A stretch of 64,000 bases of DNA from Escherichia phage tootiki, in the sequence record MN850647.1, one strand, 5' to 3'. This document shows positions 1-63,432 of this stretch, in pieces (the first letter of the stretch is position 1; each line of letters begins with the position of its first letter). The notes below the pieces were generated by a model, which saw only the letters and a program-made list of their open reading frames with translations, searched no databases and was not told where the DNA came from. A program made the translations under genes and the position numbers.

Positions 1-1393
1 AATAATCTTACAGTCTAAGCTATTAACAAGATAGTCAACAAACTCCAGCAAGTTATCTTGGTCAATTGCCCCTTGATGGTCTACGATGTGGATACGACGA
101 CCTTTAGACAGTTCTGCGTGTGCTTCCTTCAATTCATCCCAATCGCGTTCGTCATAAGGAATCTCAGAAATCTGCTTGCTAAGGTGGATTGCACAAAGCA
201 TCTCCATCAACTCTTCATAGGTATCTTCTACAGGAATTACACCAATATTGTAATCGGTTTCTTTCCAAGCTGTGTAAATCATTTCACGAGTGTATGCAGA
301 TTTACCCACTGAAGAGGGTGCTGCCAGAGTTGTAATCTCACCTAAACCATAACCGCCATAAGTCAGTCTGTTCAAATCTCCGAATGATTCTGGGAAAGGA
401 ATCAATGGAATCTGACCACGATTCTTCATTGCCTCAAAACCATCTGCGAAGTTCTTGATACCGGCAGGGCAGTAACGGGGTGCATTGTATATACGCTGCT
501 TAAACCCTTCAAGAACTGTATCTTTCTCTTTATAGAACTTTGTCCACCATTCGTTAAGGTCTTTTACACCCTCTGGATACTGGAATAAACGAACCTTCTC
601 GATAGGGAGAATGCCAGCAGCCTCTTTAGTGGCTTTAGCACCTGCTTCATCGTTATCAAAGCACAAGTAAATCTCATCAAATGATGTGATGTACTGATAG
701 TTGTCTTTGATAGACTTAATGTTTGCACCTGATGGTACAGATACGTGACAGTAATTCTTACGACGAGACTTATCTTTAATCGCAAGAGAAGTCATATAGA
801 TTGCTGTCGCACATTCCATCTCACCTTCCCAGATGAATAGACGGTTACCACCTTCTGGAGCAATCCATGAACCGAACATTGCCAGTTCACCTTTAATGTC
901 TCCAACACCACCAGAAAAGTCTTTTAGCTTACCACGTAGGTGCTCTTTTGGATGGTCTTCTGGGTAACGGTGACGAACACGGTAACCAACATGCTCTAGC
1001 TTACCATCTTCATTACGTTTGTAAGTTGGATAGAAATGCGCATCAATTTCACCGTCACTGTCAATGTCAACCTTGATACCTAAGCGTTCAAGGACTTTTG
1101 CAGGAATCTTCCTGTCTTTCAAGTCCATTGCTTCTAGGTTTTCTTTTACATCGTCTAAATCCATTCCACGGAAAGTACGGTTTTTGTTATCTGAACCAGT
1201 AGAATAAGTGCTCACGATTTGTCCTTTATCAAAATCCCACTCTGGGAAACCTTTGTTACAGCTAAAGCAAGTCATCGAATAAGAATCATCGTCATGATGA
1301 TAGATTGAACCAGCATCTGATGAACCACAACGTGGACATGCACAATGACCAATAAACTGACCAGCCTCTTTCAATTTACGACCTTTAGACATT
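1..1393 (-). CDS. DNA primase-helicase (T7 gp4-like), partial; start codon at 1393, continues beyond window start
   Basis: Minus-strand translation from ATG at 1393 gives a Cys4 zinc-binding region (CPRCGSSD...CFSC), a TOPRIM-like acidic motif (CFDNDEAG) and Walker A (APSSVGKS); no stop before coordinate 1. Confidence 0.8.
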
Positions 1394-1585
1394 AGCACCT
1401 CTTCGTTGTAGTTCTGCCTTCAATCCATTTTCAATCTTGTCCAGTTCATGAATTTCATCTGCAATCTCTTTCCTTCGTGATTCAACTCTCTTAAGACGTT
1501 CAATCATTACCTCATTGGAAAGAGATGAGAGTTCCACTAAACGGTGGTCAATAACTTTAAAATTGTCTTTTACTCTCATCTTCAT
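1385..1585 (-). CDS. hypothetical small protein
   Basis: 66-aa ORF, charged helical sequence, co-oriented with neighbours. Confidence 0.45.
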   Translation of the reverse strand: MKMRVKDNFKVIDHRLVELSSLSNEVMIERLKRVESRRKEIADEIHELDKIENGLKAELQRRGANV

Positions 1586-1593
1586 TCTCTCTT

Positions 1594-2337
1594 TTAAATC
1601 TTCAGGATAGCTCTTAGCTTACTTTCAAGGTCTGCAAGAGTACCATTATTATGGATAATGTCACGCGCATATTTGGTAGAAATTCCATTTTCTGAAACAT
1701 GTGATGAAACCTTGTCCACATTGTCTCTTTTTACTTCAATAGTCTGGTGTGCAAATCTACTCAGCCACTCAGCTTCAGAGTCAAACCTTAAGTCACTGAT
1801 TAAAACAACACCCTCTTGATTCATAAGTGAACAAGATTCAAAGAAGCGAGCCATTCGTTTTTCAAGGTCTTTAGCCCAGAATTTGTCACCCATAACTTTA
1901 CGGATGACTTCAGTACCCCAAATCTGTTGAATTTGTCTTGATGAGAATTTATACTTGTTGCTAAATCCTAGACGTGTTAATAGAGTCGGTTTAGCAATCT
2001 TCTTAAGCTCCATGATTAATCGTCCGGTTAGTTCTGACATAAGCTTAAAATCCATATGGTAACGTTCATCTTTGAAGGTAAACTCCATAGCTTCTGTAAC
2101 TTTGAACATCAATTCAGGATATGATAAATCAAAAACCTGTGGAGTCTCTTTAGTTTCACCATACAGGTCATTCCAAGTTAGGTCAAATATCTTTGATGCA
2201 GATAGTTTAAGGTTGTCTGCATAGGCCATTACTGCAACATTGTAGCCGTACTCATCCTCTAAGATGTTCTTCACAATAGAACACGAGGTGTCTTTTCCAG
2301 AACGTGCCTTTCCAGTAAATGCGATAATATTACTCAT
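1594..2337 (-). CDS. deoxynucleoside monophosphate kinase (T4 gp1-like)
   Basis: N-terminal P-loop FTGKARSGKDT and C-terminal NGTLADLESKLRAILKI closely resemble T4 gp1 (SGVKRSGKDT ... DGSLEELFSKIKNTLKVL). Confidence 0.75.
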   Translation of the reverse strand: MSNIIAFTGKARSGKDTSCSIVKNILEDEYGYNVAVMAYADNLKLSASKIFDLTWNDLYGETKETPQVFDLSYPELMFKVTEAMEFTFKDERYHMDFKLMSELTGRLIMELKKIAKPTLLTRLGFSNKYKFSSRQIQQIWGTEVIRKVMGDKFWAKDLEKRMARFFESCSLMNQEGVVLISDLRFDSEAEWLSRFAHQTIEVKRDNVDKVSSHVSENGISTKYARDIIHNNGTLADLESKLRAILKI

Positions 2338-2398
2338 TTTATCTCCCTTAATTACTAAAAAGCCCCCAACTAAGGAGGCTTGTAAGATTTATAAAGAC

Positions 2399-3199
2399 TT
2401 AGTGCAGTTGGTCAGCATACTCTTTTTCAGCCATAGCTGAGATTTGCTTCACAAAATCATCACCGAAGTTAATGCGTAGTTTTTCTTCAATGATTGAAGC
2501 ACCAATGTTCACCAAAACATCATTGATGGCTTGCATACTAACGCCACCAGTCATCTCCTCAATGAACTCAATACTTACACCCATCATCTGTGAAAGTTGG
2601 ATTAGTGCAACGATATTCATCATCGTAGAGATAGCTGGAATCATCAGTGCAACTTTCACCTGAAGTGGTTCTATATCAGCTACAGAGTCATTTTCAACAG
2701 CTTCTTCCAAAGAATCTTTGGTTTGCTGGATAATTTCTTGGATTCGTGGGTTTAGTTCTTCTACCCCCCAATCAAGTTTTTCATATCGTGACAGCTTCTC
2801 TCCCATTCGCTTCTCAAGAGCAGCCATAACAGCACTTGTTGATGAAATTATCATGGAAATTAACTCATTATTACCTAATGACAGTAATAAGTCCTTTTCT
2901 TCAGAGTTAAGGGAGATATAGTCATTTTTCTGCATCTCCTTAAAAATGAACTCTGCAAGAGCATCAACACCTACGACTATAGATGCTAAAGCAAGTGTAG
3001 TGTCTGTCAACATCATGTTAACCTGTTCTGCAAAAGCACCATTATCAGACTTGTCTTCAGGCAAGTTATAGCTTGAAGGCATAAACTGTTCTGTGTAGTT
3101 GTTCCCACGAAGAATCATAGCCATGCTTTCTACGGCATTGATTAAAAATGCTTCGTCAATACCTTTTTCTTCAAGCATCTTTTCTACATCGATATTCAT
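2399..3199 (-). CDS. hypothetical protein
   Basis: 266-aa ORF, tightly packed with neighbours. Confidence 0.6.
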   Translation of the reverse strand: MNIDVEKMLEEKGIDEAFLINAVESMAMILRGNNYTEQFMPSSYNLPEDKSDNGAFAEQVNMMLTDTTLALASIVVGVDALAEFIFKEMQKNDYISLNSEEKDLLLSLGNNELISMIISSTSAVMAALEKRMGEKLSRYEKLDWGVEELNPRIQEIIQQTKDSLEEAVENDSVADIEPLQVKVALMIPAISTMMNIVALIQLSQMMGVSIEFIEEMTGGVSMQAINDVLVNIGASIIEEKLRINFGDDFVKQISAMAEKEYADQLH

Positions 3200-3200
3200 A

Positions 3201-3623
3201 TTATTTCTCTCTCAGTTGGTTAAGTTTCTTTCTAGAACATTTTAAGTTTTCGGATGAAGAAAAGTCAAGTGTCTTTTCAGAACGTGGATAATAGTGCCTA
3301 TCCCAAGAAGTTTCAACATCGTTAATCAGTGACGCTAGATTACACAGGTCTGTACCACTTTGCAACCTCTTTTTAAGAGAGTCTAGTAAAGCAACTGTGT
3401 CTTTAGCTTTACGTCTCGCTGTAGCAACATCTTTCATATGCTCAAATACAGAGCATTTTAAGTCATCTTCATAGTTTTCAGACAACTCTATTTCATGTTG
3501 TATATCAACCATCCTCCTGTGATGGTGAGCATATTCCCGTTGAGCAGCAATGTCAAGTTCTTCCAACTTCTGCAAAGCTCTAACAAAGTCAGCTATGTCT
3601 GGGTGAACAAACATTTTCTGCAT
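3201..3623 (-). CDS. hypothetical protein
   Basis: 140-aa ORF. Confidence 0.6.
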   Translation of the reverse strand: MQKMFVHPDIADFVRALQKLEELDIAAQREYAHHHRRMVDIQHEIELSENYEDDLKCSVFEHMKDVATARRKAKDTVALLDSLKKRLQSGTDLCNLASLINDVETSWDRHYYPRSEKTLDFSSSENLKCSRKKLNQLREK

Positions 3624-39016: not shown

Positions 39017-39092
39017 TGGAGAATCCGAAGGGACTCGAACCCTTATAAACCTGTTCTGCAGACAGGTACATATCCATTTCTGTCACGGATTC
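39017..39092 (-). tRNA. tRNA-Cys (anticodon GCA)
   Basis: Cloverleaf by eye: acceptor GAATCCG/CGGATTC, anticodon stem CCTGT/ACAGG, loop CTGCAGA, T-loop TTCGAGT, CCA encoded. Confidence 0.7.
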
Positions 39093-39096
39093 AAAT

Positions 39097-39189
39097 TGGA
39101 GGAAGATACCAGACTTGAACTGGTACACCGATTTCTCAGCTACTGGCAGTTTAGCAAACTGCTCCCTTACCTTTTAGGGTTAATCTTCC
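39097..39189 (-). tRNA. tRNA-Ser (anticodon GCT), long variable arm
   Basis: Acceptor GGAAGAT/ATCTTCC, anticodon loop TTGCTAA, 21-nt variable arm, T-arm ACCAG-TTCAAGT-CTGGT. Confidence 0.7.
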
Positions 39190-39190
39190 A

Positions 39191-55086: not shown

Positions 55087-55335
55087 TTAGTTAGTGCCTT
55101 CTTTGTCGTAGTACAAGGAGACAATTTTTTCACCCCAGTAGTGGTATGTATAACCCTCTTTGAGAACTTCCTCTTTTGTTTCTTTCCAGAATTCATCAGA
55201 GGGGTTGTAGTCACTGATGGTCTGGCTGATAAGGCCTTTCACCATTTCAAAGGCGTTATCAGTACCTACAAGGTCAAATTTAACGTCCAGAGAGTAGAAG
55301 CCAAATTCGTTAACAGTTGCGCGGATAGTAGCCAT
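55087..55335 (-). CDS. hypothetical small protein
   Basis: ATG immediately follows the conserved leader module. Confidence 0.55.
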   Translation of the reverse strand: MATIRATVNEFGFYSLDVKFDLVGTDNAFEMVKGLISQTISDYNPSDEFWKETKEEVLKEGYTYHYWGEKIVSLYYDKEGTN

Positions 55336-55441
55336 TTTAGAATCTCCAGTTTAGGAAGTTGATTAAGGGTTTTGTTTAGCGGGGAAGGTCATTCCCTCCC
55401 CGTTGATTGACAATTTACAGACTTTTGATTGTTTCGTCAAT
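55336..55441 (-). promoter_or_regulatory. conserved promoter-leader module, class B
   Basis: Minus-sense TTGACG-N17-TAAATT, leader hairpin CGGGGAGGGAATGACCTTCCCC, then CTAAACTGGAGAttctaaaATG. Confidence 0.5.
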
Positions 55442-55944
55442 ATCTTTTTCAATATCTTTTAAAGTTTTTTCTAAGTTCTTGATATTGAAAGATAAACCTT
55501 CTCCCAGTGTCTTAGAGTAACCGCTAGGACGTGAGTCATATAGTTCAATTTCTTCTACTTCGAAGAGGCTAACCAACTCACCGCTTACACTGTAAGCCAT
55601 TGAAACAGTATTTACAGGGGCTTTATAAAACTTGTTTAAGGACTTGATAGAACGTTCATAAGCCATTTTATAGCTATTTAAAAGGTTTTTAACGTGGCTG
55701 TGAACGTTTTTACACTCATCTAAATAAAGACCTAAAAACATCGGGAGAAGTTCCGCGACAGCTTGCATAAAGTGAGAGACTACAACGGTTGCAACATTAC
55801 GACGATGAACGTAATAAGCCCCGTTTTCTGATTTGGTAATGGTTGCAAAGTGTACCCCATTACAACGAAATTCATAGGTATCTTTAACAGGCTTAGACAT
55901 TACATTATTTGAACGAATATAGTTGATAGCTTTGAACTTGTTCA
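55415..55944 (-). CDS. hypothetical protein
   Basis: Start set at ATG 55944 directly after the conserved leader (ORF track start 56038 lies inside the module). Confidence 0.5.
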
Positions 55945-56037
55945 TTTTAGAATCTCCTAGTTTAAGGACTTTACTTAGTAGGGAGGTTATTGCCTCCCCG
56001 TTGATGAGTAATTTACTTGTTTTGATATCTGATTGCA
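55945..56037 (-). promoter_or_regulatory. conserved promoter-leader module, class B
   Basis: TTGCAA-N17-TAAATT, GGGGAGGCAATAACCTCCC hairpin, AGGAGA RBS. Confidence 0.5.
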
Positions 56038-56167
56038 AGCAATTTTTTAAGTTTATCTATAAAGAATCTTTTAAGTTAATCCCTTTTAGATAAACCCCCT
56101 CGAACAAATCTACCAATGTCAAGGGGCGTTGTCAATACTTTTTTGAAAGTTTTTTGTAAGTTATTGA

Positions 56168-56509
56168 TTAACTGATGAATATTTTTTCAGGTTTTACATA
56201 GCTGATACGCTGACTTTTTAGCAGGTCATCCCAGATTAACGCGGCGATATGGGCATAACCGGATTCACGTAAAAGCTTCATTGTTTTACTTCTCGTTTCA
56301 AAACGGCTTGCGTAGTACTCACTATTTAAAACCGTTTTATTCCCTTCGTTATCTACATGGATAATCTGCATCACTTGAAAGGGGCTTGTGTCCTCGCCTT
56401 TGTTCCACTGTTCAAAGTATTTTAGGCACTGCATAGGTGACATCTTATCACTTACTTGAGTTGACCAAGATGAATTTTCTTTATCGGTAATTACGGTTAC
56501 ATAAGCCAT
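56168..56509 (-). CDS. hypothetical protein
   Basis: 113-aa ORF following the leader module. Confidence 0.55.
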   Translation of the reverse strand: MAYVTVITDKENSSWSTQVSDKMSPMQCLKYFEQWNKGEDTSPFQVMQIIHVDNEGNKTVLNSEYYASRFETRSKTMKLLRESGYAHIAALIWDDLLKSQRISYVKPEKIFIS

Positions 56510-56600
56510 TTTTGAATCTCCTAGTTTAAGGATTGTACTTAGTGGGGAAGGTCATTCCCTCCCCGTTGATTGACAATTTACAGATTTTTATCAGGCTTGT
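56510..56600 (-). promoter_or_regulatory. conserved promoter-leader module, class B
   Basis: TAGACA-N17-TAAATT, GGGGAGGGAATGACCTTCCCC hairpin, AGGAGA RBS. Confidence 0.5.
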
Positions 56601-56834
56601 CTAGTCTTTTTCAATGATAATTTCATACTGACCATCTACGCTGTCAAAATAGATACCGTCTTCATCTTCTGTCTTAAAGTAACATTGTATATCATCACTA
56701 GCGGGATAGTCTTGTCTTGCTATCTGACAGACCTGAACAGCATTTTCTTTACTTCCTGTAAACTCCTCAAGCCCTTTAAAATCACATGAATGACCATTAC
56801 AAATAGAAAGGATAAGATAAACGGTTGTAAGCAT
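56601..56834 (-). CDS. putative lipoprotein/secreted small protein
   Basis: N-terminal hydrophobic segment ending in Cys; preceded by hairpin AGCCCC/GGGGCT instead of the conserved module. Confidence 0.45.
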   Translation of the reverse strand: MLTTVYLILSICNGHSCDFKGLEEFTGSKENAVQVCQIARQDYPASDDIQCYFKTEDEDGIYFDSVDGQYEIIIEKD

Positions 56835-56900
56835 GATTTAAGCCTCTTAAAAGCCCCTGTGAGGGGCTAATCAGTGTTTATAAGGTGATTGCATAGGTTT

Positions 56901-57443
56901 TTAGAAAAAGCTCTTTAAATCTCTCTCTGTGATGTTTCCCGCTAGTGTATCCATGATGTCACAAAAAACCTGAATACTATCCGACTGTTGAATACTTTTA
57001 GCAAGAAGCTCCAGAGACTCATCAAGATAATTTAAATTTGGGTTATCCAATGAAGGAAGACAAAAAGGCGAAAACATCGCATTAAACTCGGTTACGTAAA
57101 CCTTTTTAATCCAATTTAAATCGAAGTATTCTGTAAAACTTGCTACGCCAGACATATTATCACAAGAATAATCATCATTCAGGTCATCCTCTGGGATATC
57201 AAGTTCTAAGATAACAATATTTTGGGTTTTCATCTGGAAAGCGGCCGTAATAGTGGCATTACCTAACGCTTGCTGGATGCCTTCGGCTGTTATCTCTTCC
57301 TCATCGTCGCCATAGATTTTATTTTCTGGATACACGTAAAAATTGCCGTCCATGTCCGAACAATTCCATGCACCTGATGGCTTGTCACCGTTATTAATCA
57401 GGTTGAGGAAATTTTCTTGAGTAGTACCGTGAAAGCATTTCAT
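56901..57443 (-). CDS. hypothetical acidic protein
   Basis: 180-aa ORF following a class A module. Confidence 0.55.
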   Translation of the reverse strand: MKCFHGTTQENFLNLINNGDKPSGAWNCSDMDGNFYVYPENKIYGDDEEEITAEGIQQALGNATITAAFQMKTQNIVILELDIPEDDLNDDYSCDNMSGVASFTEYFDLNWIKKVYVTEFNAMFSPFCLPSLDNPNLNYLDESLELLAKSIQQSDSIQVFCDIMDTLAGNITERDLKSFF

Positions 57444-57535
57444 TTTTGAATCTCCAGTTTAGGATTTAGTGGTAAAGCTCTTTATCTGGGGCTTACTTTA
57501 TCGAACTATAAGCCCCTTGTAAAGTACTTTATTTG
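57444..57535 (-). promoter_or_regulatory. conserved promoter-leader module, class A
   Basis: Minus-sense TTTACA-N17-TAAAGT overlapping hairpin GGGGCTTA...TAAGCCCC, then CCACTAAATCCTAAACTGGAGATTCAAAAATG. Confidence 0.5.
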
Positions 57536-57732
57536 TTATTTTTTACTACTTTTAAAACCGCACGATAGCCTAAGCAATAGGAATCACCGAAGAGCGACCG
57601 ACCCATGAAGGAGTCCTCTGTAATATCTTTCGCCGTGACGGTTTTTTCTACGCCGTGAAAGAGAACTACATCACCGACTTTAATATCTTTGATGTGTGTA
57701 GTTTCAATGGTTAAACCGTTAATAATAGCCAT
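57529..57732 (-). CDS. hypothetical small protein
   Basis: 67-aa ORF following a class B module. Confidence 0.5.
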   Translation of the reverse strand: MAIINGLTIETTHIKDIKVGDVVLFHGVEKTVTAKDITEDSFMGRSLFGDSYCLGYRAVLKVVKNNK

Positions 57733-57842
57733 TTTTGAATCTCCAGTTTAGGACTTTATTTAGTGGGGAAGGTCATTCCCGCCCCGTTGATGTGTAATTT
57801 AATCTATCTGAAAACCAATGTCAACAATTTTTTTTTTTTTTT
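57733..57842 (-). promoter_or_regulatory. conserved promoter-leader module, class B, preceded by A15 tract
   Basis: Minus-sense A15 tract (57828-57842), TTGACA-N17-TAAATT, GGGGCGGGAATGACCTTCCCC hairpin. Confidence 0.5.
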
Positions 57843-58245
57843 AGAGTTCTGCATAAATTGCATCACAGATACCACGAAAATCATGATTTGTCAAATTACG
57901 TTGTAACCAAGTGGCGAAAAAGTCAGCGATTGCAAAGTTAGCGTCATACTCGACAGATAGCCACACTTTAACAGCAAACCGAAACATTTTCAAATCAAGC
58001 TCTTTATTCATTACCTTAGATTTGCCTAACATGTCGGACATTTCATATTGTGCACCGTCTAGCGTGATACCTGCTGCAACGTCAGCCAATGAGTTTTTTA
58101 CGTTTTCAACGTCTAAGATAACGCTTTGAATCTTCCCAATAATGTTGTGCAATGTTTCGTCCGGTGCTGATGACGTAATAACATTAATCCGGTTAACGGT
58201 CAAACGTGCTTTTAAGATTGATAACTCGCGATTATTAATAGCCAT
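57841..58245 (-). CDS. hypothetical protein
   Basis: Start set at ATG 58245 (MAINN...) by leader alignment; ORF track start 58260 lies inside the module. Confidence 0.5.
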   Translation of the reverse strand: MAINNRELSILKARLTVNRINVITSSAPDETLHNIIGKIQSVILDVENVKNSLADVAAGITLDGAQYEMSDMLGKSKVMNKELDLKMFRFAVKVWLSVEYDANFAIADFFATWLQRNLTNHDFRGICDAIYAEL

Positions 58246-58331
58246 TTTTAAGTTCTCCAATTTAGGATTTAGTGGTAAAGCTCTTTATCTGGGGCTTACT
58301 TTATCGAACTATAAGCCCCTTGTAAAGTACT
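58246..58331 (-). promoter_or_regulatory. conserved promoter-leader module, class A
   Basis: Near-identical to the 57444, 59920 and 60299 modules. Confidence 0.5.
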
Positions 58332-58604
58332 TTATACTAAATGCAGCTTTTTACCTTTTACTATGATGTAACTCGATGCGCTATTGCTTTGCACATCCTG
58401 ATAAATTCTGCGCAAACGGCCTTCGTAGTATACTTTCCAACTGGTTGGAATCTTTTTCCCGTATCCTGTAGCAGTTTTTTGTAGTCCTGCAAGTTGCCAA
58501 TCTAAGATATGTTGTTCGGCTTGTAAATCCTCGAAGTGCATTACACCGTTCACATAGTGACGAAGGGTTATGTTTAAGGTGCGACCGTTGTTAGTAGTAT
58601 ACAT
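58332..58604 (-). CDS. hypothetical small protein
   Basis: 90-aa ORF. Confidence 0.5.
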   Translation of the reverse strand: MYTTNNGRTLNITLRHYVNGVMHFEDLQAEQHILDWQLAGLQKTATGYGKKIPTSWKVYYEGRLRRIYQDVQSNSASSYIIVKGKKLHLV

Positions 58605-58690
58605 TTTGAATCTCCTAGTTTAAGGACTTTGTTTAGTGGGGAGGTCATTACCTCCCGTTGATTAGTAATTTACTTGTTTTAAAAACCAAA
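58605..58690 (-). promoter_or_regulatory. conserved promoter-leader module, class B
   Basis: TTGATT-N17-TAAATT, GGGAGGTAATGACCTCCCC hairpin. Confidence 0.5.
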
Positions 58691-58691
58691 A

Positions 58692-59024
58692 TCAAGAGAA
58701 ATTTTTTCGTTTGCTCAATTCTTGAACAATTACAGCGTAGTAGTCTTTTAAGTCACTGACATTTAAAGCATTTATCAGAGAATTATAATCATCGACTAAC
58801 TGAAAATCATCTTTGAAAATGTCGCTGATTTGATAAGTTTTTGATTGAAATCTGAAGCTCATTTCTAGCCGCTTTATTTGCTCATCACTGAGGCGCCCTA
58901 GAAAGCTTTCTACAAGGTTATTGCTAACCTGCTGTGTGATTGCCTTATTTGCTAGATTATAGGCTTTATATGCCTTATATAGCGCGAAAATGGCAATGAT
59001 TGCAGTGATACCAGTCATTAACAT
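58692..59024 (-). CDS. small membrane protein
   Basis: N-terminal transmembrane segment ITAIIAIFALY; not preceded by the conserved module. Confidence 0.5.
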   Translation of the reverse strand: MLMTGITAIIAIFALYKAYKAYNLANKAITQQVSNNLVESFLGRLSDEQIKRLEMSFRFQSKTYQISDIFKDDFQLVDDYNSLINALNVSDLKDYYAVIVQELSKRKNFS

Positions 59025-59314
59025 GGTGTTTCCTCTTTACGTGATACTTTGCCATTTACAGTTATCTCATAAGAATCTAGTAAGTCACTTTTAGACTTTA
59101 CTGGACTTTTAAAAGTATCATCATAAATATTTACTTGCAATACAGGTTTTTTATACTCCCTGCAACTATTCCATAAGCAAATCACTACGCGACGGCCTTT
59201 TATTTTGCCGTGCAACCATTCCATAACATCATGATTATTTCTTGATGTCTCGATAAAATCAATTTTGTTGAGTAATTTGCTCAGATTTTCACGCACTTGA
59301 TTTGATAATTTCAT
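59018..59314 (-). CDS. hypothetical small protein
   Basis: 98-aa ORF following a class A variant module. Confidence 0.5.
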   Translation of the reverse strand: MKLSNQVRENLSKLLNKIDFIETSRNNHDVMEWLHGKIKGRRVVICLWNSCREYKKPVLQVNIYDDTFKSPVKSKSDLLDSYEITVNGKVSRKEETPC

Positions 59315-59400
59315 TTTAGAATCTCCTAGTTTAAGGGCTTTATTTGATAAATCTCTTTATCTGGGGCTATCTTACCAGCTTGATAACCCCGTGTAAAGAA
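59315..59400 (-). promoter_or_regulatory. conserved promoter-leader module, class A variant
   Basis: Same leader 3' end; divergent hairpin GGGGCTAT... Confidence 0.45.
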
Positions 59401-59406
59401 ATCTAT

Positions 59407-59919
59407 TTAGTTCTTAAAGATATTCATCACTGAGTCTTTCAACGATTCCAAACGTTCTAATACTTCAGTTTCTGCGTCTGAATTGTTCACCTCTTCTTTT
59501 AGTCTATCTTCTAAATCCTCACCGTCACTATAGCACCAATCGAAAGCGTAACCAATATAAAAGCTGTCTAAAACCGTTTTACCGTTTGCATCTACAACTT
59601 TCGCGGCAATGTTATACTCTGAAGCTTCTAAATCTCTTTCTAGTTCTTCCTGTAAGCTTGCGTAAGCCTCTTTTGATGGATTTTCCCGGCCTTGTTTTGC
59701 ATAGTCACTAGAAAGCTGCTTAAGGCTGTAATGTAAAGGGATTGCATATTTAAAATCATTACGCTGACAGTTAGGATTTTTAATCGTCACACCACCTTGA
59801 TGGTCATCTGTAAACTTCCAATTATCAAGATTATGGCTTGCTTCAAAGCAATTTACCGCTTCATAGATAATGGTGAATTTTTCTTTTACAACTTCAAAAG
59901 TAGCGTCTACAGTTTTCAT
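59407..59919 (-). CDS. hypothetical protein
   Basis: 170-aa ORF. Confidence 0.55.
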   Translation of the reverse strand: MKTVDATFEVVKEKFTIIYEAVNCFEASHNLDNWKFTDDHQGGVTIKNPNCQRNDFKYAIPLHYSLKQLSSDYAKQGRENPSKEAYASLQEELERDLEASEYNIAAKVVDANGKTVLDSFYIGYAFDWCYSDGEDLEDRLKEEVNNSDAETEVLERLESLKDSVMNIFKN

Positions 59920-60000
59920 TTTTGAATCTCCAATTTAGGATTTAGTGGTAAAGCTCTTTATCTGGGGCTTAAGATATCAACTTTTAAACCCCATGTAAAG
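59920..60000 (-). promoter_or_regulatory. conserved promoter-leader module, class A
   Basis: Shares the leader and first hairpin arm (GGGGCTTA) with the other class A copies; second arm and -35 region divergent. Confidence 0.5.
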
Positions 60001-60004
60001 TACT

Positions 60005-60298
60005 TTATTTGTTAATTTTCAGCTTTGCATAACTTCTCATTGTACGAATGGTGGATGTTAATGCTACGCGTCTAATGTATGCCTTTTTCGTGTATACATT
60101 TGTCTTCCCGATAGTGTTTACACATGTAAAAAGGTTTATCGGTGAATTTTTTAACTTCAACTGTTTATCAGCCTTCACGCCCCACCTTACAGCAGATTGT
60201 TTTCCGTTGTCAACCACTTTCCCGCATAACTTTTTAGCCATAACGCGAGCGTCATCACGAGTTTTTGCAGCAATTACAACGTTTTTGATAATAGCCAT
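60005..60298 (-). CDS. hypothetical protein
   Basis: Start set at ATG 60298 (MAIIKN...) by leader alignment. Confidence 0.5.
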   Translation of the reverse strand: MAIIKNVVIAAKTRDDARVMAKKLCGKVVDNGKQSAVRWGVKADKQLKLKNSPINLFTCVNTIGKTNVYTKKAYIRRVALTSTIRTMRSYAKLKINK

Positions 60299-60384
60299 TT
60301 TTAAGTTCTCCAATTTAGGATTTAGTGGTAAAGCTCTTTATCTGGGGCTTACTTTATCGAACTATAAGCCCCTTGTAAAGTACT
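60299..60384 (-). promoter_or_regulatory. conserved promoter-leader module, class A
   Basis: Near-identical to the 58246 module. Confidence 0.5.
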
Positions 60385-60591
60385 TTATTTATCGTAGTAG
60401 TAAATTGCTGTCTGTCTTGTAAACTTCTTAGTATTTCTTGTCAGATAGCAATTAGAATTAATAGCCGTTTCTACATAGTTGCAATAGTCAGCTTCTGATA
60501 TTCTAGACCATACGCCACAGATTTGCATGTAAAAACGTTTTACCTTTGTGTGAATGTTAGTTGTAACCATCAATTCGCGACTGTACAGCAT
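60385..60591 (-). CDS. hypothetical small protein
   Basis: 68-aa ORF following a leader variant. Confidence 0.45.
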   Translation of the reverse strand: MLYSRELMVTTNIHTKVKRFYMQICGVWSRISEADYCNYVETAINSNCYLTRNTKKFTRQTAIYYYDK

Positions 60592-60839
60592 TTTTAGATT
60601 CTCCAGTTTAGGAAGTGGGCTTGATTGCCCGTCTGATGCAGATATTAGATAACTATACTCAAAGAGTCAATAGGAATTTTAAAAATATTTTTTGCAAAAA
60701 TTGTAATGAAACGGGTGCGCGCGACTACCACAAAACAGAACTACAATCAAGAATTATTTTTCAATCCGCTACAAATTTTTCTGTTGACTTTTATTTCCAG
60801 ATGTGGTAGCCTTGTGAGAAATGGCGACATCCCCACCTG

Positions 60840-61040
60840 TACCCACCTACCTGCACAATTCTAAAATGATTTTTCTTGCCCGACCTGAGCGGGGTCTGCA
60901 CGTTTTGAAAATGAAAAAGCTCTTTGGAGATTACCTGCACAGTTTAAAAATGAATTTTCTCTTTGGAGTTCAAAATTCTCTCTACAGATTTCTCTACAGA
61001 ACTCTACCTGCACAAATCTGAAATGAAAAAGCCCTCCTTA
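60840..61040. promoter_or_regulatory. cluster of direct repeats upstream of the leftward small-gene array (candidate operator/promoter region)
   Basis: Three copies of TACCTGCACAnnTnTnAAATGA at 60848-60869, 60932-60953 and 61005-61026; repeated CTCTTTGGAG and AAATGAAAAAG. Confidence 0.5.
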
Positions 61041-61099: not shown

Positions 61100-61885
61100 T
61101 TAGTTCTTTGCGTCTAAGAAGGTAACTTCTGGTGAAGAGAAAACTGTCTCGATATCCTCATCAGTTCTTGCATAGATATAAGTATCTGCATCACTGCCAA
61201 ATGTTACTGCAATCCTGTGATTGCTCTTCGACAGGTGGGTAACTAGAGCGTTACTCAGAGACATCTTTTCAACCGGAGGGTTACTTTGATGTATCTTACC
61301 TTTTCTTCGTCTGAAGAGGGTAACTGCGTTATCTGTGAACACTGCTACACCTGCAAAGTATTCTGGTTCACAGTAGTTCTTCCAACCTGAGCGTAACTTG
61401 TGGTACATCTCTCCTTCGTAGACATAAAGATACACATCTACACTCTTCATCACCTGATTAATGATAACTGTGACGGCTTGAGGGTCTAGCCCACCGATAC
61501 CTGCACCAATCATAGGTAAACCAACCTTCTTCAACTGGTTGACTTCACAGTATCTGTTAAGCTGCTTCAAAGATGACTCTAAAGCACTGTATCGGGCATC
61601 TTTACCAGTCTTAAGCTGAGTGTAAAGGTTAGCTATACGGCCTTGTTCTAAACGTGCTACAGAGAAATTACCCAGTAAATTTTCACAGGGTTTGTGACCT
61701 ATACCACCTGCATAGAGGTAAACTTCTGTATCGGTCTCATATGCTTTTGGGTAAAGTTTAGAAATCTTGTCAGCGATACCTACACCCATTAAATTCATAC
61801 AGTTGCAACCGTGACCAATAATATCAAACTTACCTTTATCAAATGCTGAGAAGATATCCCCATTGATGATTTTTACAATACCCAT
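61100..61885 (-). CDS. macro-domain (ADP-ribose binding/processing) protein with C-terminal extension
   Basis: N-terminal IINGDIFSAFDKGKFDIIGHGCNCMNLMGVGIADKI matches the macro-domain pattern (GDIT ... DAIVNAAN ... GGGVAGAI) by eye. Confidence 0.55.
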   Translation of the reverse strand: MGIVKIINGDIFSAFDKGKFDIIGHGCNCMNLMGVGIADKISKLYPKAYETDTEVYLYAGGIGHKPCENLLGNFSVARLEQGRIANLYTQLKTGKDARYSALESSLKQLNRYCEVNQLKKVGLPMIGAGIGGLDPQAVTVIINQVMKSVDVYLYVYEGEMYHKLRSGWKNYCEPEYFAGVAVFTDNAVTLFRRRKGKIHQSNPPVEKMSLSNALVTHLSKSNHRIAVTFGSDADTYIYARTDEDIETVFSSPEVTFLDAKN

Positions 61886-62086
61886 TTAGCATCTCTCCCA
61901 AGATTCTTTATCTTCTGAAGGTTTTACACGTTGTCCTTCGTGGTCTACCCAGATACATCCACAACCTTCACAGATTACTGGCATTGCATAGCCAGCTTTA
62001 AAGTCATCTTCAGTGATAAGACCTTTTAAGTCACCTGTATCACGTCCGAACATTTCGATAGAACAGTCTTTGCAGAAGTCAGCCAT
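61886..62086 (-). CDS. Cys-rich small protein
   Basis: CKDC ... CEGCGC pairs; start at ATG 62086 after AGAGG. Confidence 0.45.
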   Translation of the reverse strand: MADFCKDCSIEMFGRDTGDLKGLITEDDFKAGYAMPVICEGCGCIWVDHEGQRVKPSEDKESWERC

Positions 62087-62881: not shown

Positions 62882-63145
62882 CTATTTATTTCCTAATAAA
62901 ATCATATCAATAAGGTTATTAGCTTTGATTGTGCACTGGTAAAATCCATCACGATAGAACTCAAGGGCTGCTGCTACATCACTGCCTGTGTTGCCTTTGA
63001 TGGTATACCGTGATTCTTCTTGAGTGTACTTGTCACTCTCACTTACTTGGGAGTTTTTGAATGTACTGTTCACTTTGTTCGTTGAACACCCTGACATAAT
63101 TATCAGTAACACAAACATTATAAAACTCTGGCTTAGTTTTTTCAT
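62882..63145 (-). CDS. lipoprotein (candidate o-spanin)
   Basis: Signal peptide with lipobox LIIMSGCS; AAGAGG upstream; overlaps the 3' end of the upstream membrane-protein gene in another frame. Confidence 0.45.
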   Translation of the reverse strand: MKKLSQSFIMFVLLIIMSGCSTNKVNSTFKNSQVSESDKYTQEESRYTIKGNTGSDVAAALEFYRDGFYQCTIKANNLIDMILLGNK

Positions 63146-63386
63146 ATGTTAGTACCTCTTTTGTATGCTTATTCTTAGCAAGCACATCTTTCAAATCATT
63201 TTTGTAATTGGTGCTCAGTGTGACTAAACCTTCCTGATAAGCATCTTTAGCAACACTGATTAGTTTCTCATTGTTTAGCTCAGCTTCAGCAACTTGATAG
63301 TCTCTGTAAGAGTATCCTCCCCAGACACCTGCTCCAACTAAGAAAACAATTATGAAAGTAGCTTGACAGAACTCTTTAAATGTCAT
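63039..63386 (-). CDS. membrane-anchored protein (candidate i-spanin)
   Basis: N-terminal transmembrane segment FIIVFLVGAGVWGGY followed by helical charged region. Confidence 0.4.
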   Translation of the reverse strand: MTFKEFCQATFIIVFLVGAGVWGGYSYRDYQVAEAELNNEKLISVAKDAYQEGLVTLSTNYKNDLKDVLAKNKHTKEVLTYEKTKPEFYNVCVTDNYVRVFNEQSEQYIQKLPSK

Positions 63387-63432
63387 TTAACAATCTCCTG
63401 AAATGAAAAAGGCTCCCGAAGGAGCCTGTGTA

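Follow-up and report, generated by a model that had tools for sequence, protein, structure and literature searches.

A macro-domain protein of Escherichia phage tootiki related to T4 Tk.4 and fused to an orphan C-terminal domain

Introduction

Tk.4 of phage T4 is the closest studied homologue of the protein described in this work. Transposon sequencing has identified tk.4 as the single T4 gene required on a DarTG2 host, and a clean tk.4 knockout sensitises T4 specifically to DarTG2 (bioRxiv 10.1101/2025.11.20.689424). The gene has been named adfM (anti-DarT factor Macrodomain) because T4 needs it to resist DarTG2; T4 without AdfA and AdfN is still resistant to this system (PMC11825919). Here, we analyze a gene encoding a macro-domain protein with an additional C-terminal domain, located on the minus strand at positions 61100..61885 of a 64,000-nucleotide stretch of Escherichia phage tootiki (sequence record MN850647.1; the whole stretch is hereafter called the window).

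Several other macro-domain proteins are relevant to the comparison. The DarG-like macro-domain protein gp104 of phage PhiKZ, for which the name AdfM is also used, takes DarT2-made ADP-ribose off DNA in vitro and neutralises the toxicity of DarT2; its activity is lowered by the N23A substitution (PMC13309987). SCO6735 of Streptomyces coelicolor (PDB 5E3B) cleaves ADP-ribose from thymidine in DNA and confers protection against DarT. Its activity is lost in Q85A/E and nearly lost in N27S, the latter because Asn27 locks Gln85 in place, and its mechanism has been proposed to be water-mediated (PMC9967889, PMC9411070). Macro domains are, at the same time, notoriously promiscuous in substrate (PMC9503650). 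The substrates of human TARG1/OARD1 and yeast Poa1p comprise Glu/Asp-linked ADP-ribose, O-acetyl-ADP-ribose and Appr1p, none of which is established as a substrate of the phage clade considered here.

Results and discussion

Identification of the macro domain

The gene is a complete open reading frame (ORF) of 261 aa with an ATG start and a TAA stop. A preliminary description of this DNA, made from the sequence alone, had placed an ORF at the same positions with its strand unstated, and the two strings that it quoted, IINGDIFSAF and DIIGHGCNCMNLMGVGIADKI, are both present in the translation. Residues 1-157 (61415..61885, minus strand) are a macro domain by profile, fold and motifs, as had been proposed for the N-terminus in that description. 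The Pfam profile PF01661 (Macro) matches residues 25-141 over profile positions 2-117 of 118 with a score of 30.9 bits versus a cut-off of 22 (E=3e-7), and the best matches in PADLOC and NCBIfam are DarG (E=5e-13) and antitoxin_DarG (NF048014, E=3e-12), respectively. An AlphaFold model built from 10 homologues, with a mean predicted local distance difference test (pLDDT) score of 79, has the three-layer alpha/beta/alpha architecture of the macro fold. When the macro half was used as a tblastn query, relatives were found in 2,782 phage records. When 15 diverse members of this clade were aligned, the invariant residues were H25, G26, N28, C29, M33, G36, A38, P46, N86, L87, T89, Q90, P124, G127, A128 and G129, with HGCNC / NLYTQ / P-x-IGAGIG as the clade signature.

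The window protein was further compared with TARG1, the DarG proteins of T. aquaticus and M. tuberculosis, and PhiKZ gp104 in a structure-anchored alignment. N28, G34, G36, G127, G129 and G131 align with the loops of TARG1, DarG and PhiKZ AdfM, and all of them are invariant or nearly so in the clade. Asn28 (codon AAC, 61802..61804, minus strand) is the conserved macro active-site Asn and is equivalent to N23 of PhiKZ AdfM and N27 of SCO6735. All hallmark positions are retained but one: the column of the catalytic Lys (K84 in TARG1, K80 in DarG) is occupied by Gln90 within the NLYTQ motif (codon CAG, 61616..61618, minus strand), and this Gln is invariant in the 15 diverse clade members, T4 Tk.4 included. 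Therefore, the protein is not a Lys-type enzyme of the TARG1/DarG kind. Compared with TARG1, the Lys84/Asp125 pair is replaced by Gln90 and Gly131, Gly being also the residue that DarG has at the Asp125 position.

DarG, the antitoxin of DarTG2 (T. aquaticus and M. tuberculosis), has Lys80 where the window protein has Gln, and the differences between the two extend beyond this residue. The NF048014 match reaches 46 bits versus an equivalog cut-off of 250 and covers only positions 4-154 of 338, that is, the macro part; the C-terminal domains are unrelated, and the window protein is not a full-length DarG with a DarT-binding C-terminal domain. No darT gene lies beside the window macro gene, which has a gene for a 66-aa CxxC protein upstream and a terminator downstream.

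A Gln-type active site resembling that of SCO6735

In SCO6735, a Gln is present at the TARG1 K84/DarG K80 position, an Asn locks this Gln, and a His is located three residues before the Asn. H24, N27 and Q85 of this enzyme correspond to H25, N28 and Q90 of the window protein, an equivalence drawn through the K80/K84 column together with the statement in the SCO6735 paper; the link to 5E3B itself is a profile match only. This match was obtained with the clade profile at E=3.4e-17, and a single-sequence search did not detect SCO6735. Judged from sequence, the residue set of a Gln-type hydrolase of thymidine-linked ADP-ribose (the Gln, a stabilising Asn and a nearby His) is complete in the window protein, and the SCO6735 precedent shows that a Gln at the Lys position is compatible with this chemistry. 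The two proteins differ in setting, SCO6735 being the single-domain product of a bacterial chromosomal gene with a RecA-NDp (DNA-damage) promoter.

The absence of the catalytic Lys of TARG1 and DarG also bears on another explanation, in which the protein would be a non-catalytic ADP-ribose reader or sponge, or else an eraser regulating the phage's own ADP-ribosylation. Some macro domains bind only, and catalytically dead SCO6735, DarG and TARG1 still inhibit DarT through interaction (PMC9411070). However, the Gln-type residues H25, N28 and Q90 and the Gly loops are invariant over a very wide clade, and no ADP-ribosyltransferase is annotated in the 67 kb of the related phage Bas63 that were covered (1-50000 and 55163-72486; an annotation check only). 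We consider this explanation very improbable.

Relationship to T4 Tk.4 and a putative anti-DarTG2 role

T4 Tk.4 is 35% identical to the window protein (E=2e-23; window residues 3-157 versus Tk.4 residues 2-152). The two proteins have identical invariant motifs, HGCNC, MGxG(I/V)A, NLYTQ and P-x-IGAGIG, including the Gln at the Lys position, and Tk.4 shares the clade-invariant H25, N28, G34/G36, T89-Q90 and P124-x-x-G-A-G. Like the window gene, tk.4 is an accessory gene of a lytic coliphage. Their architectures are different: Tk.4 is a stand-alone macro domain of 155 aa, whereas the window protein has an extra domain of ~104 aa. With 261 aa, it departs from the stand-alone form of ~150 aa that characterises AdfM proteins of the Tk.4 type, the 51 macro-only relatives being mostly 135-186 aa in length. 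Anti-DarTG2 activity has been genetically shown for Tk.4 and is putative, by homology, for the window protein.

Based on these comparisons, the reading that we favour, with about even confidence, is that the protein is a counter-defence ADP-ribosylhydrolase of the Tk.4/AdfM type, which would use a Gln-type (SCO6735-like) mechanism to strip phage DNA of DarT2-type ADP-ribose. Among the roles suggested in the preliminary description, reversal of DarT-type DNA ADP-ribosylation is now the best supported, by homology to the anti-DarTG2 factor Tk.4. In the proposed mechanism, a host DarT2-type toxin would attach ADP-ribose to thymidine of single-stranded phage DNA; the macro domain would then bind that ADP-ribose and hydrolyse the ribose-base bond, by which a replicable template would be restored. 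Catalysis would be of the Gln type, as for SCO6735, and not of the Lys type, as in TARG1 and DarG. Asn28 would lock Gln90, and Gln90 would in turn position the distal ribose. The diphosphate would be held by the Gly-rich loops (G34/G36 and G127/G129/G131), and the chemistry itself would be carried out by water. The C-terminal domain might conceivably act as an accessory targeting or binding module for nucleic acid, the toxin or a phage partner.

If this is true, Felix O1-type phages, which are widely used in Salmonella and E. coli typing, biocontrol and therapy, have a built-in counter to DarTG2-type DNA ADP-ribosylation, and the gene would help to explain and predict their host range on strains with DarTG2-type systems. 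Moreover, the Gln-type macro mechanism, so far known mainly from SCO6735, would gain in this protein a second example that is easily tractable. Such a result would extend the recently described AdfM class and would not overturn current views.

Diversity of the clade and alternative substrates

A profile built from the clade matches BT1257, Poa1p, M. tuberculosis DarG, TARG1, SCO6735 and T. aquaticus DarG, all with E values from 4e-18 to 5e-16. These near-equal matches place the clade by sequence inside the ALC1/TARG1/Poa1p-like class, with no branch chosen. The window protein itself is similar to Poa1p in both sequence and fold.

We also examined the genomic context of macro genes across the clade. 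There is no conserved macro neighbourhood, since no gene family is common to more than four of the 33 macro lineages, which fits a stand-alone accessory or anti-defence gene. In one clade member, protein P0016 (L007:1250-2269), a macro domain with the HG(C/A)NC and NLYTQ motifs is followed by a C-terminal cREC_REC (cyclic-phosphate processing receiver) domain, and this fusion suggests that some clade members process ADP-ribose cyclic-phosphate derivatives. In large phages representing three of the 33 lineages (L042, positions 765-3486; L045; L055), the macro gene stands at the end of an overlapping operon, after genes for a P-loop kinase (AAA_33, polynucleotide-kinase-like), an Rnl1-like RNA ligase (phrog_562) and a phosphoesterase (phrog_547); this operon is an RNA-repair cassette with a macro domain. 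In Felixounavirus, a gene for a polynucleotide kinase/phosphatase-like protein (phrog_3970) lies ~2 kb upstream of the macro gene on the same strand, and a nicotinamide phosphoribosyltransferase gene lies ~8 kb upstream.

The P0016 fusion, whose cREC_REC domain is predicted to open the ADP-ribose 1''-2'' cyclic phosphate, is one of the observations that point to soluble substrates rather than DNA. The protein could be a hydrolase of small ADP-ribose derivatives, such as a Poa1p-like ADP-ribose-1''-phosphate phosphatase, an O-acetyl-ADP-ribose deacetylase, or a degrader of His-ADPR/gcADPR immune signals. The historic GenBank names 'phosphatase', 'Poa1p_like' and 'O-acetyl-ADP-ribose deacetylase' agree with such an activity, as does the nicotinamide phosphoribosyltransferase of the same phages, and Iyer et al. 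hold that phage macro domains mainly act on low-molecular-weight ADP-ribose derivatives (PMC9503650). However, the GenBank annotations are transferred names and not tests, and the sole known phenotype of a clade member, that of T4 Tk.4, is DarTG2-specific. We regard a small-molecule hydrolase as rather unlikely, and the ADP-ribose-derived signals or metabolites that the preliminary description had named as an alternative target are accordingly kept as a minor possibility.

The RNA-repair cassettes raise the question of RNA as a substrate. An RNA-directed de-ADP-ribosylase tied to RNA repair would clear 5'/3'-phosphate ends or uracil/adenine bases and thereby keep tRNA or mRNA usable or ligatable in infection, with the beta-rich C-terminal domain serving as an RNA-binding module. 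Besides the macro genes that close the kinase/ligase/phosphoesterase operons, this idea is in line with the phrog_3970 gene upstream of the Felixounavirus macro gene, with the efficient reversal of uracil ADP-ribosylation of RNA by TARG1-like macro domains (PMC13036486), and with a weak profile match of the C-terminal domain to ribosomal protein L25 (E=0.054). We consider an RNA-directed function unlikely.

Several points weigh against a Tk.4/AdfM-type activity on DNA. Poa1p (E=9e-18), BT1257, TARG1, DarG and SCO6735 all lie equally near to the clade profile, and the cREC fusion and RNA-repair neighbours of some clade members indicate other substrates. An identity of 35% inside a clade of thousands of phage macro domains is no proof of a common substrate, and the C-terminal domain is without similarity to the DarT-binding C-terminal domain of DarG. 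In addition, the support for T4 AdfM is genetic only and comes from a preprint, and a literature search for Felixounavirus or Bas63 together with DarTG or macrodomain found no paper or experiment. With these points taken into account, we infer the substrate and the anti-DarTG2 role from homology, and counter-defence against DarT2-type modification is the function that we favour.

The C-terminal domain

Residues 158-261 (~104 aa; 61103..61414, minus strand) form an orphan domain, in which the models place six strands and short helices after a linker helix (pLDDT 70-79). It contains a conserved basic motif, K/RRKGK(V/I)HxSNPPVEK. Within the phage collection, 246 records contain the domain, always as a part of the macro gene, and all of its carriers are Felixounavirus-, Mooglevirus- or Suspvirus-type phages; it is missing from other Ounavirinae (Erwinia phiEa104) and from all other members of the macro clade. 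Versions that have diverged to 22-23% identity are still found in the same order of genes, which runs from rIIA/rIIB to the macro gene. In a codon-based comparison of 28 distinct orthologues, the ratio of nonsynonymous to synonymous substitution rates (dN/dS) was 0.08-0.11 in the macro half and 0.20-0.33 in the C-terminal half. More distant orthologues are 75-80% identical in the macro half and 47-53% identical in the C-terminal half. The C-terminal domain is genuine and under purifying selection, and it evolves about three times faster than the macro half. The preliminary description had proposed a C-terminal domain of about 110 aa; its existence is supported by the distribution and dN/dS values above, and its size has to be corrected to ~104 aa. 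The faster evolution would suit a specificity or partner-binding module.

Searches for relatives of this domain returned little beyond its own family. No Pfam family was significant in any of nine members, the profile search against PDB sequences gave only the L25 match mentioned above, and the fold search in BFVD retrieved the SUSP2 orthologue only. A profile search of 1.84 billion representative proteins produced five matches, of which three belong to the same family or are fragments of it and two are repeat-driven eukaryotic artefacts. An identity as a PH, NAC or L25-like domain was rejected, as the matches are below threshold (PH, E=0.037-0.15 in two of the nine members; L25, E=0.054) and fold support is absent. 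We also considered an internal start at the invariant Met160, which would yield a free C-terminal protein, and rejected it: the GGAG upstream of this codon in the window is not conserved in diverged orthologues.

One idea for its role, to which we assign a low probability, is that the domain is a new fold through which an otherwise ordinary Gln-type macro hydrolase becomes an orphan antitoxin with two prongs: it would erase the modification and would also bind the toxin, or modified nucleic acid, directly. Such an arrangement would be analogous, and evolutionarily unrelated, to the C-terminal domain of DarG; alternatively, the domain might retarget the hydrolase to another ADP-ribosylated substrate, e.g., RNA. 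Its partner, whether a toxin, a nucleic acid or a phage protein, could show how phage erasers are targeted.

Distribution among Felix O1-like phages

The source phage belongs to Felixounavirus, the Felix O1-like myoviruses within the Ounavirinae. More than 180 genomes of E. coli and Salmonella phages share the 3 kb surrounding the macro gene at 92-95% identity, and the protein is 97-99% identical to its counterparts in these phages. Overall, orthologues with 91-99% amino acid identity were found in more than 190 Felixounavirus records; the record of Felix O1 was matched by using the C-terminal domain alone (97%). The orthologue in Bas63 is bas63_0095, annotated as 'putative phosphatase', and the GenBank labels of orthologues include 'phosphatase', 'putative phosphatase', 'O-acetyl-ADP-ribose deacetylase', 'Poa1p_like' and 'hypothetical protein'. 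The protein matches PHROG 335 end to end (E=1.3e-111). The gene family has already been catalogued, and proteins of its kind are known; the new elements are the orphan domain fusion restricted to Ounavirinae and the explicit tie to Tk.4/AdfM and the Gln-type mechanism.

The two halves of the protein show mosaic relationships among these phages. In L026 and L027 (3001-3786), the macro half is 91-92% identical to that of the window protein and the C-terminal half is 98-99% identical, and L021 has the opposite pattern. These mosaic halves indicate recombination between the two halves among Felixounaviruses.

Transcription unit and neighbouring features

A Shine-Dalgarno-like GGGAGAG stretch (61892..61899, minus strand), recognised by direct reading of the sequence, lies ~7 nt 5' of the macro ATG and within the last codons of the upstream gene for the 66-aa protein, whose TAA directly adjoins the macro ATG. 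An intrinsic-terminator-like hairpin of 17 pairs followed by a T-run is found 30 nt 3' of the macro stop (61070-61029, minus strand). A second terminator-like hairpin, with a terminator score on both strands, is located 5' of the spanin genes (63410-63427). The macro gene is the last gene of a minus-strand unit, because the hairpins at 61070-61029 and 63427-63410 bound this unit. The unit starts with the i-spanin gene (63039-63386) and the o-spanin gene that overlaps it (62882-63145), which are followed by four small ORFs of unknown function and the macro gene. All neighbours of the macro gene in the window are PHROGs of unknown function or spanins. The macro gene appears to be in one transcription unit with the lysis genes, unless the internal promoter-like sites at ~62800 and ~62700 are used.

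The 66-aa protein (61886-62086, minus strand; phrog_2210) has a CxxC...CxxC pattern and is present in 835 phage records. It is unusually conserved between unrelated phage groups, with 72-77% identity to rV5-like and 64-71% identity to T5-like phages. A conserved pair formed by this gene and the macro gene was considered and rejected: the gene is widespread in rV5- and T5-like phages, and the macro gene is not adjacent to it in the one rV5-like locus inspected.

On the plus strand, two small ORFs at 60706-61021 converge on the macro terminator. Short direct repeats of the aaaatgaaaaag / ctctttggag type are abundant in this region, and the Bas63 counterparts of the two ORFs, bas63_0096 and bas63_0097, are annotated as hypothetical proteins. 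Farther downstream, past the macro unit, intergenic cassettes are repeated at 55325-60622 in four to five copies, which precede a string of small minus-strand genes. Each cassette contains a GGGGAAGGTCATTCCCTCCCC hairpin, a TTGACA-like box, and a conserved ribosome-binding site with the first codons (e.g., MENLKMAI), and the arrangement resembles a terminator-promoter module that is reiterated in the early region. Finally, 24 tRNA genes are clustered at 39017-44210 on the minus strand, as is typical of Felix O1-like phages.
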